DNA from: Methanobacteriota archaeon
GTDB lineage: Archaea > Thermoplasmatota > E2 > DHVEG-1
Reading direction: 5' to 3'
Assembly: GCA_963769885.1 (NCBI GenBank)
Contig: CAVYNH010000007.1
Location: 448,001 to 512,000 of the forward strand
DNA: 64,000 bases
Made by a program: the position numbers and the translations under genes
Notes under the pieces: generated by a model
What the model was told of the DNA's origin: nothing
The model's input: only the letters and a program-made list of their open reading frames with translations
Databases searched by the model: none
Part shown: in pieces, positions 54,471 through 55,613 of the stretch
Numbering within the stretch: position 1 is the first letter of the stretch
Layout of the letters: each line of letters opens with the position of its first letter

Positions 54471-54499
54471 GGTCCTGGGTGTCGGCCGTAAGCCTCTTT
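54471..54499 (-). repeat. Direct repeat of the RNase P RNA 3' end (att-like)
   Basis: GGTCCTGGGTGTCGGCCGTAAGCCTCTTT versus 55294-55322: 28 of 29 identical. Confidence 0.9.
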
Positions 54500-54623
54500 A
54501 TCACTTATAAATAATAACAAATTCTAGAAAATTTGAAGATGTAATGTCCTAGAAAATTCTTATTATTTTTTGATAAATTTAATAAAGAAATAGTTATTAC
54601 GATCTTACTGTTAGGGCGGTGTA

Positions 54624-55256
54624 ATGACTGCACAGAATCCTGATTTTAAACAACCACCTTGGGTGCAAAGCCCCTCTGAAGTCATGAGTTGGATTGACGC
54701 AACACATCCTTCGAAGAAAACAAAGGGTAAAAAACACGTAGCATCCGGTGAAGAGATTCTTCGAAATCTCCATGTTTGTTTCGATTTAGACATCGAACAA
54801 AAAAAGATACCACCGCGGAATAGTATTTCAAAATTTATAACGATGATTACTAGGAATGGATTTGTTGAAGAAGGGTTTGAACTCATTCCAACAGCTGAAC
54901 TTGTTTTACGAGGCCTTGCGAAGGCGAAGTATAAAAATATTGTAAAAATAGTTTGTAATGAAAAAACCATATATCGTCATTCAGGCAACAATCCCGATCT
55001 GAGAAAAACTATCGATGATTTCAGCGAGTTTACCAATGACGTCCAAACAGGAAAATCAGTCGAGGTGACCACTATTTCAAAAGAAGGTATGAAAAGTCTC
55101 GCTATCGTAAAAATTATGAAGATTCACAAGGAAAAGGATCATGCAGTCGATATTCAGATAAAGGGAGGGATTAAGAAGGAATTGTATCACACGTTTCTTA
55201 ATTATCTTACTGAAAAGCTTGGTTTAAAAGATGACCAAGAGAAATTTCTTAGATAG
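54624..55256 (+). CDS. AT-rich Lys-rich hypothetical protein
   Basis: A 210-aa ORF lying between rnpB and its 3'-end repeat. Confidence 0.7.
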   Translation: MTAQNPDFKQPPWVQSPSEVMSWIDATHPSKKTKGKKHVASGEEILRNLHVCFDLDIEQKKIPPRNSISKFITMITRNGFVEEGFELIPTAELVLRGLAKAKYKNIVKIVCNEKTIYRHSGNNPDLRKTIDDFSEFTNDVQTGKSVEVTTISKEGMKSLAIVKIMKIHKEKDHAVDIQIKGGIKKELYHTFLNYLTEKLGLKDDQEKFLR

Positions 55257-55292
55257 GGCCATTTAAAATAAATAACGAATAAAGATGTTCGT

Positions 55293-55613
55293 TGGTGCTG
55301 GGTGTCGGCCGTAAGCCTCTTTTTGTTCTGACGGCATTCGTCTGATGCGCCCTACCCGCGAGCAATCTGGACAATTGATCCCGCTGTTTGGGCTTGCTCC
55401 AAGGGCGGATAAGCCGTTTCACCAACTCCCACGACGACCTCATCACCACACGTGAATCATCGCATAGATCGCAGGCTGTGCCGTTTCTGTGCCTCCGCAG
55501 AGGCTCTCGCCTCTACCGCTTGCACGGTGCCCCGGTCCAGACCGAGAGAGGACTTTCCTCAGCAAAAACCCCAAGGGTCTTCACCGTCAACCGTCCACCG
55601 ACGCCCAGCACCA
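55293..55613 (-). ncRNA. rnpB: RNase P RNA
   Basis: The minus strand has GAGGAAAGUCC near the 5' end and AACAAAAAGAGGCUUA near the 3' end. Terminal P1 helix UGGUGCUGGGCGUCGG / CCGACACCCAGCACCA; ~320 nt. Confidence 0.93.

Follow-up and report, generated by a model that had tools for sequence, protein, structure and literature searches.

The 3' tail of rnpB, the gene for archaeal RNase P RNA, is very probably the integration site of elements that carry an Xer-like tyrosine integrase, and the arrays of small units found behind it would have been built by repeated integration. In this study, we have explored this system from a stretch of 64,000 nucleotides (the window; contig CAVYNH010000007.1, positions 448,001 to 512,000, assembly GCA_963769885.1), which belongs to the metagenome assembly of a Thermoplasmatota archaeon (genome G000, host GC about 57%). 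In the window, rnpB and a second copy of its tail bracket a small cassette, and a reading made from the sequence alone had proposed that the RNA gene was used as an integration target. Our results support this proposal through an empty site, varied cargo, and a dedicated clade of Xer-like integrases that lies against rnpB in relatives.

The rnpB tail and its cassette

The features of the locus, in window positions, are:

55300..55606, minus strand: rnpB, archaeal RNase P RNA (Rfam RNaseP_arch, RF00373; 175.3 bits against a cut-off of 84; model positions 1-288, the full model)
55294..55322, minus strand: proximal core copy (attL-like), the working 3'-terminal 29 nt of rnpB, with P1 complementarity kept
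54471..54499, minus strand: distal copy of the core (attR-like), which differs from the rnpB 3' end at one position (direct-repeat and pattern search)
54500..55293, no strand: cassette body, 794 nt, 35% GC (35-37%), with one gene and no integrase; flanks at 54-62% GC
54500..54557, minus strand: conserved cassette arm adjoining the distal core and lying upstream of the cargo gene as well (seen in an alignment of 68 distal copies)
54624..55256, plus strand: cargo gene P0001, which encodes a 210-aa accessory protein conserved in Thermoplasmatota and is the sole credible open reading frame (ORF) between the repeats

The identification of the RNA gene as rnpB, first made from the sequence alone, is confirmed by the archaeal covariance model. 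Both features of an RNase P RNA are present, namely a full-length match above the gathering score and a P1 helix that closes the 5' and 3' ends (arms at 55293-55308 and 55598-55613, an inverted repeat of 16 nt that is 94% complementary), which gives the gene, P1 included, an extent of about 55293-55613. The claim that the last 29 nt of rnpB recur with one mismatch also holds: 54471-54499 and 55294-55322 form a direct repeat, and searching the window with the 20-nt core of this repeat, with as many as three mismatches allowed, gave exactly these two sites, and 100 shuffles gave none. The P1 helix uses the proximal copy, and the mismatched base, as read from the sequence, is one that would disrupt P1 pairing, the pairing base being present in the proximal copy and lost in the distal one. 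The insert is thus bounded by a direct repeat of the 3' part of an RNA gene that itself remains intact, as in an integrative element.

The description of the insert as about 0.8 kb of AT-rich DNA with a single credible ORF and no integrase was borne out by the GC profile, the ORF list and domain searches, which found no integrase domain in P0001 or elsewhere in the unit. The intact unit measures 823 bp. Its arm carries the motif TTACATCTTCAAA at 54532-54544 and the terminus GTGATAAAGA, and the cassette site as a whole (arm and core) includes the motif TTACGTCTTCAAA. This arm is probably where an integrase binds, and it is of the same subtype as the arm of an integrase-bearing element in a relative, G020 (81.5% identical over 92 nt). 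The whole genome G000 holds only two core copies and one arm, and an arm-motif search of it returned no arm-plus-core site beyond that of the window.

Arrays, integrases and empty sites in relatives

We scanned 118 genomes of the order for a 21-nt pattern of the core with at most two mismatches, and used the reversed pattern as a control. Most relatives are fragmented metagenome assemblies, and the copy counts and integrase absences given here are accordingly lower bounds or uncertain. At least two core copies were found in 55 of the 108 genomes of the window's family, with up to 12 copies, and the control returned 0 in every genome; the two sister families (10 genomes) have at most one core copy, that of rnpB itself. 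In 20 array regions the copies are co-oriented and spaced by 0.55-8.2 kb, with spacings of about 600 and 800 bp recurring. Most distal copies are preceded by an arm of about 55 nt that reads TT[AC][CT]GTCTTCAAA, an A/T-rich spacer, then ...TTTCTC...AAAG[AG], and runs into the core; the leading motif of this arm stands at 46 of the 68 distal copies, while random 40-nt windows drawn from these loci contain it in 0.9% of cases. Most of the small units contain a single gene or a single pair of overlapping genes, which may face either way relative to rnpB. Their cargo comprises ParE/RelE-type, PIN-antitoxin and HEPN-nucleotidyltransferase (HEPN-MNT) pairs, HicA and Imm5-like proteins, and further beta-helix/NosD-like proteins, an AAA_14 ATPase and one truncated integrase.

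Some observations on these arrays deserve mention in their own right. A second arm type (...CATCAAGGAC...GAACTCGTCT...) stands before some rnpB cores in loci L037, L039, L042, L051, L052 and L056, and terminates the Imm5 cassette in L056; the rnpB tail is probably used by more than one element family. In three genera (G022:C14, L054 3375-3860; G009:C96, L049; G013:C67, L051) an array starts away from rnpB, directly after a conserved gene for a HycI-like hydrogenase maturation protease, behind which the rnpB tail is represented by a longer fragment, matching through AACAGAAAG. This HycI-linked fragment looks like a second, fossil anchor of the same cassette system. We also noted that at most a few hundred bases separate rnpB from the end of its contig in G005, G011, G019, G023, G025, G028 and G038, and that the contig ends 400-600 nt past the integrase in three integrase loci; variable arrays behind rnpB would explain such assembly breaks.

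The integrases came from the rnpB loci of 15 relatives, in three of which the tail recurs downstream of the gene (G020 at +3113, G022 at +3555 and G021 at +617), while seven have no second copy within 10 kb. The inserts of G020 and G022 encode tyrosine recombinases of 340 aa that are 49% identical to each other (PF00589, E-values of 6.5e-26 and 2.4e-27). Their invariant residues R139, K162, H231, R234, H257 and Y267 (alignment A2) fit the R-K-H-R-H-Y pattern and, judging from their spacing, would be the catalytic ones. The best model for these proteins is that of archaeal XerA (NF040815), which they match at 157-166 bits, below its cut-off of 220, and in the alignment they continue for about 60 residues past the end of the XerA match; for these two reasons we regard them as a distinct clade. 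The integron-integrase model TIGR02249 gives 63-68 bits against a cut-off of 265. A search of public genomes with the two proteins returned six related loci, in Thermoplasmatales assemblies. Four of them extend far enough to show the neighbourhood, and in each the integrase gene points its 3' end towards that of rnpB, about 100-200 nt away; a fifth has its distal core 2.3 kb past the integrase. Because it adjoins rnpB in every locus where there is enough sequence to see, this Xer-like clade is dedicated to rnpB, and it would be the enzyme that catalyses integration there.

The integrase-bearing units are of 3-6.5 kb and combine the integrase with uncharacterised or defence-like genes (Schlafen/AlbA_2, HEPN); no replication, capsid or conjugation/transfer genes were recognised in them. 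Just after the core they open with TTACG[TG]C repeats, which resemble CTTACGG in the core and are candidate integrase-binding sites. Such units stand in the same arrays as the cassettes. In G077 (L042), cassettes stand in the same array behind a unit whose 340-aa ORF, the size of the G022 integrase, lies 80 nt from the rnpB core; the array of G010 (L044) begins with a unit that has a Pfam-confirmed integrase (PF00589); and in G074 (L052) the first unit is larger than the others. In a search of IMG/VR for free or viral forms of the element, the closest integrase was only 24-31% identical.

The genes around the cassette serve as landmarks for comparison between relatives:

53961..54425, plus strand: Imm5-like gene, an older cassette of the same array with its distal site lost (PF21805, 1.3e-40)
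53333..53887, plus strand: DUF4760 gene, 46% GC, between the Imm5-like gene and the conserved flank, inside the segment absent from the empty site of G018
50926..53157, plus strand: Metallophos gene, conserved chromosomal flank at the far edge of the array zone, adjoining rnpB in G018 and directly after the fifth cassette in L056
55735..56898, plus strand: Na+/H+ exchanger gene, conserved flank 5' of rnpB (PF00999, 2.4e-68)

Both an empty site and different cargo are found behind rnpB in relatives. In G018, a genome of a different genus that is 94% complete, the Metallophos homologue follows rnpB after 336 nt, which is the empty configuration. In G001, of the same genus as G000, the Imm5 gene comes directly after rnpB, and the flank of rnpB (TTTCC...CCCAGTCAA) matches the window's flank past the distal repeat; because this native flank is the one that lies beyond the distal copy in the window, G001 is empty at the position next to rnpB that the window's cassette occupies. 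The P0001 cassette of G001 lies on the far side of Imm5, so that the two genes stand in opposite order in G000 and G001. Other relatives have other genes downstream of rnpB. On L056, a JGI metagenome contig of about 35% GC, the order is rnpB, P0001, a 426-aa gene, Imm5, Fic, DUF7557-ParE and Metallophos; the five cassettes between rnpB and Metallophos are delimited throughout by copies of the rnpB core, of which one has two and another three mismatches, and the arm motif is present at four of the five cassette-distal copies. Additional metagenome contigs have the same genes in further orders.

The comparison with L056 also bears on how the window's cassette reached its place. Window 54471-55349 aligns with L056 4848-5727 over 880 nt at 86.4% identity, a stretch that takes in both cores, the arm and the non-coding ends, and the units measure 823 and 824 bp respectively, whereas the Metallophos flank is 51% identical at the amino-acid level and 56% at the nucleotide level, with synonymous sites saturated. 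It is this contrast, between a unit that is alike to both its ends and a flanking gene that is saturated, which indicates that an integrase-less cassette moved as a unit. The synonymous divergence (dS) of P0001 is 0.35 against L056 and 0.23 against G001; between G000 and G001 that of Imm5 is 1.26, and a neighbouring core gene of 775 aa is saturated. Eight other cassette families occur as discrete units in 2-4 genomes or genera each, at 72-89% identity. The low dS and the shared units are hard to reconcile with the independent decay of full elements, and point to cassettes having been carried between hosts. The 35% GC of the window's cassette fits a low-GC donor such as the organism behind L056.

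With these relatives in hand, the window can be read as the smallest array of its kind, with one intact cassette and older ones whose sites have decayed. Its interval between rnpB and Metallophos is of 2.1 kb and holds the P0001 cassette, the Imm5-like gene and DUF4760. The Imm5-like gene, which falls outside the coordinates given in the sequence-only reading, is taken as an older cassette with a decayed far site because its homologue has rnpB cores on both sides in G043 (L041) and L056; DUF4760 is probably a still older, eroded cassette. A search of the 64-kb window found no degenerate copies of the rnpB tail bounding either gene. The order Imm5, P0001, gap, Na+/H+ exchanger was found again on a metagenome contig. 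As a separate observation, the spacer between DUF4760 and Imm5 (53888-53960) contains CACTCTGTCTTCGTAAAT, which resembles the arm motif but stands on the other strand, with no core close to it; this may be chance or the remnant of an inverted unit.

Proposed mechanism and alternative explanations

Under the mechanism that we propose, an integrating element would bring its own copy of the core, which would restore an intact rnpB, and the original tail would be displaced downstream. Repetition of this event would give an array that reads rnpB, unit, core, unit, core and so on, in which most units are integrase-less, with one gene or one toxin-antitoxin pair, and end in the arm of about 55 nt and the core. 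The window's cassette arrived as a unit from a low-GC relative, and its likeliest carrier would be an integrase-bearing element of the same family, acting either in trans or through tandem accretion and the later loss of the helper by excision. A further step is to see here a working capture system, integron-like but convergent in archaea, in which an Xer-derived integrase moves cassettes tagged with the arm and the 29-nt tail in and out of the array and between species. We put the chance of this stronger claim at a little short of even.

Several of our observations weigh against the proposed mechanism. The integrase clade was found in only 19 of the 108 family genomes (E<=1e-60), with two of the copies interrupted by stop codons; most arrays are therefore without a cognate integrase in their assembled genome, and most may be fossils. 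Genome G000 itself has no cognate integrase at E<=1e-60, its best tblastn match being 32% identical, and for this reason the window's cassette, intact at both ends, is stranded unless an integrase comes from outside. An integrase fragment lies inside array L053, which shows that integrase-less units also arise by the decay of full elements. The P0001 cassette of G001 has no core, so that this copy at least is immobile, and in other genera P0001 occurs in ordinary, non-array contexts with no rnpB core nearby. The main arm motif is missing from 22 of the 68 distal copies, some of which have other arm types, and more than one element family is therefore involved. Finally, the evidence for movement is wholly comparative.

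The most serious alternative is that the window's cassette is an inert fossil, i.e., that a single ancestral integration at rnpB lost its integrase by deletion and left a 0.8-kb unit which was never mobile and has been inherited only vertically. The missing integrase of G000, the truncated one within L053 and the core lost from the G001 copy are what such a history would leave behind, and the order Imm5, P0001, rnpB, NhaP recurs on a relative's contig, as vertical descent predicts. We nevertheless consider it unlikely, as the L056 unit has the same boundaries (823 against 824 bp) at 86% identity beside a flank at 51% amino-acid identity with saturated dS, in a host whose GC content is 35% against 55%. 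Vertical descent is equally at odds with a cassette whose dS to G001 is 0.23, in a different position, when that of its neighbours is 1.26 or saturated, and with the eight other cassette families that several genera have in common as discrete units.

Bacterial elements are known to exploit XerCD at dif, and the integrase-less cassettes could by analogy be recombined by the host XerA, with the rnpB core mimicking an Xer site. The XerA-like character of the element integrases (NF040815, 157-166 bits), the many genomes with large arrays and no element integrase, and the two Xer-like recombinases of G000 (at C4:124081 and C6:676692) speak for this idea. We hold it to be quite improbable, given that the element integrases fall below the 220-bit cut-off of XerA, have about 60 extra residues and form a distinct clade, and that the enzyme would more simply come from the integrase-bearing units, which have the same arms and stand in the same arrays.

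A true integron (IntI, attI, attC) that merely happens to lie beside rnpB is close to refuted. Archaeal integrons have been reported (Ghaly et al., 10.1101/2022.02.06.479319), and like integrons and integrase-less attC clusters the rnpB arrays have one docking site, many small and mostly one-gene cassettes with a recombination site at one end, common toxin-antitoxin cargo, an order and content that vary between relatives, and in most cases no integrase nearby. However, the element integrases are not of the IntI type (TIGR02249, 63-68 bits against 265), and the sites are copies of the rnpB tail with a linear arm. Folding five of them as single-stranded DNA gave z-scores of -1.0 to -3.0 and no shared attC-like hairpin, their only common fold element being a small hairpin that belongs to rnpB itself. 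Moreover, cassettes dock here at the tail of a gene for an essential ribozyme, and the cargo genes face either way. Judged from these comparisons, the rnpB arrays behave like an integron and yet lack the IntI and attC that define one. That the repeat arose by chance or as an artefact of G000 being a metagenome assembly is refuted, because none of 100 shuffles gives a second copy, the unit with both repeat copies is present on the independent contig L056, and the same pattern occurs in 55 genomes.

Known systems, parallel arrays and cargo

That elements integrate at the 3' ends of tRNA and tmRNA genes is textbook knowledge. Our search of the literature on rnpB or RNase P RNA and integration found no report of rnpB as an attachment site, and the TIGER/Islander papers that we examined do not include it. 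A review of archaeal tyrosine recombinases (Badel et al., 2021, PMC8371274) covers tRNA targets only, with zero occurrences of "RNase P" and "rnpB". The archaeal elements it describes share with our system the tyrosine recombinase, an att site that covers the 3' end of a stable RNA gene, the rebuilding of that gene and tandem integration, but they are plasmids and viruses of 5-40 kb, unlike the arrays of sub-kilobase cassettes found here.

Among the systems compared, the tandem ssrA islands of Dehalococcoides are the closest described analogue. These islands are bounded by 20-bp repeats of the tmRNA gene tail, each preceded by a conserved 15-bp motif, and have an integration module next to the RNA gene in 16 of 31 cases (McMurdie et al., 2011, PMC3146451). 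Like the rnpB arrays, they combine a single-copy, non-tRNA stable RNA as anchor with tandem units downstream, a motif upstream of the repeat and accessory cargo. The key distinctions are that they are bacterial, use a serine recombinase module, measure about 12 kb and target tmRNA, whereas the rnpB arrays are archaeal, with an Xer-like tyrosine recombinase, an arm of about 55 nt, and units that go down to 0.55-0.8 kb, hold one gene or toxin-antitoxin pair and circulate between genera.

For the integrase-less units themselves, a useful comparison is with cis-mobilizable elements (CIMEs), which are integrase-less units that have the att sites of an integrase-bearing family and share a chromosomal site with members of that family, in tandem. 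Their movement is attributed to a helper that inserts next to them, after which helper and unit excise together. CIMEs and tandem accretion were reportedly described for streptococcal integrative elements by Pavlovic in 2004 and Bellanger in 2011. Our arrays show the same arrangement, i.e., integrase-less units flanked by the att sites of an integrase-bearing family, in tandem with such elements. The differences are that CIMEs are bacterial, depend on conjugation and target the 3' ends of protein or tRNA genes, whereas no transfer machinery was identified in the integrase-bearing units at rnpB.

The genome G000 has a second set of such arrays. When all its tRNAs and rnpB were compared with the genome by BLAST, the 3' end that the four matching tRNA-Leu genes share was found in about a dozen extra copies, some behind each of these genes and others in orphan arrays elsewhere (C4:197702, C6:290454-292369, C6:740955-741906, C7:75855, C7:164949 and C1:67752, and positions 61863-63993 of the window), each copy being preceded by an arm ...CCGGTAAACTG. 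As with rnpB, a stable RNA gene is followed by a stack of integrase-less units, each about 1 kb long and ending in a conserved arm and a copy of the gene's 3' end. The core and arm differ, however (CCGGTAAACTG and the tRNA-Leu tail), and for that reason a different integrase presumably serves these arrays, and we see the two as parallel site-specific systems and not as one mechanism. The sequence-only reading had suggested a general mechanism that captures genes at the 3' ends of stable RNA genes. This stands in so far as rnpB and tRNA-Leu both have integrase-less arrays, but the arms differ and the ends of the signal recognition particle (SRP) RNA and 5S rRNA have no duplication in G000; given the different arms, the supposed general mechanism is better described as site-specific integration of the ordinary kind, on which at least two separate cassette systems draw.

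Single tail duplications were also found behind tRNA-Val(GAC), tRNA-Glu(CTC) and tRNA-His. The 3' half of tRNA-Val(GAC) (32 nt, 91% identical) recurs about 400 nt downstream (C6:217416-217922), which makes a very small unit. The 3' end of tRNA-His (19 nt) recurs 12.8 kb downstream (C7:166566-179481), with an integrase-like match at C7:167170-167553, and this is a conventional integrated element. About ten tRNAs of G000 with introns of 335-2771 nt, as given by the intron mode of ARAGORN, proved to be spurious joins, their halves not being repeats of real tRNAs by BLAST, and were counted neither as split tRNAs nor as tail duplications. One type of cargo, a secreted protein of the beta-helix/NosD type, is encoded in the window's tRNA-Leu array (61958-63127) as well as in an rnpB array of one relative (L054:4722-5765, NosD, 5.8e-15), which hints at exchange between the two cassette systems; L052:4598-5743 has only a weak, sub-threshold DUF1565 match and was not counted as NosD-like.

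The cargo of the window's cassette is less solitary than it first seemed. The ORF had been called an orphan, and this did not survive the search for homologues, which returned 393 at E<=0.001, nearly all from Thermoplasmatota metagenomes and at 50-90% identity. P0001 is present in 21 of 41 relatives, with three copies interrupted by stop codons, and its ratio of non-synonymous to synonymous divergence (dN/dS) is 0.17-0.22. In four genera it lies about 7.5 kb from a tRNA-Gly gene, and in one close relative it is inside a 3.4-kb insertion after scpB. The AlphaFold model (AF2, pLDDT 74) is an alpha/beta sandwich, for which the structure searches gave no convincing counterpart. P0001 has no match in Pfam or NCBIfam, and Foldseek returned nothing from the PDB at E<=0.001. 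The best VIA-align hit, to sandwiches of the AdoMet-decarboxylase type, has a Z of 7.1, which is inside the stated noise range. The shape search of the ESM Atlas gave TM values of 0.53-0.57 to bacterial proteins, with weaker rows to TBP-like families, and its feature search gave no usable match. The label "YajQ" attached to some homologues (JGI) is not backed by any Pfam match and was set aside.

In conclusion, our results extend the known tRNA and tmRNA targets of integration to the tail of rnpB, a use that is new as far as we have found in the literature. The window's cassette is the visible tip of a family-wide system, with arrays of up to a dozen sub-kilobase cassettes that share a recombination arm. 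These arrays look like a convergent counterpart of the bacterial integron, made from an ordinary Xer-like integrase and an attachment site in an RNA gene, and they offer a concrete route of gene exchange for uncultured sediment Thermoplasmatota. The 21-nt core can serve as a simple probe to locate further arrays. If the capture system is indeed a working one, the arrays present in half of the genomes of the family would amount to a shared and exchangeable pool of toxin-antitoxin, immunity and surface-protein genes.

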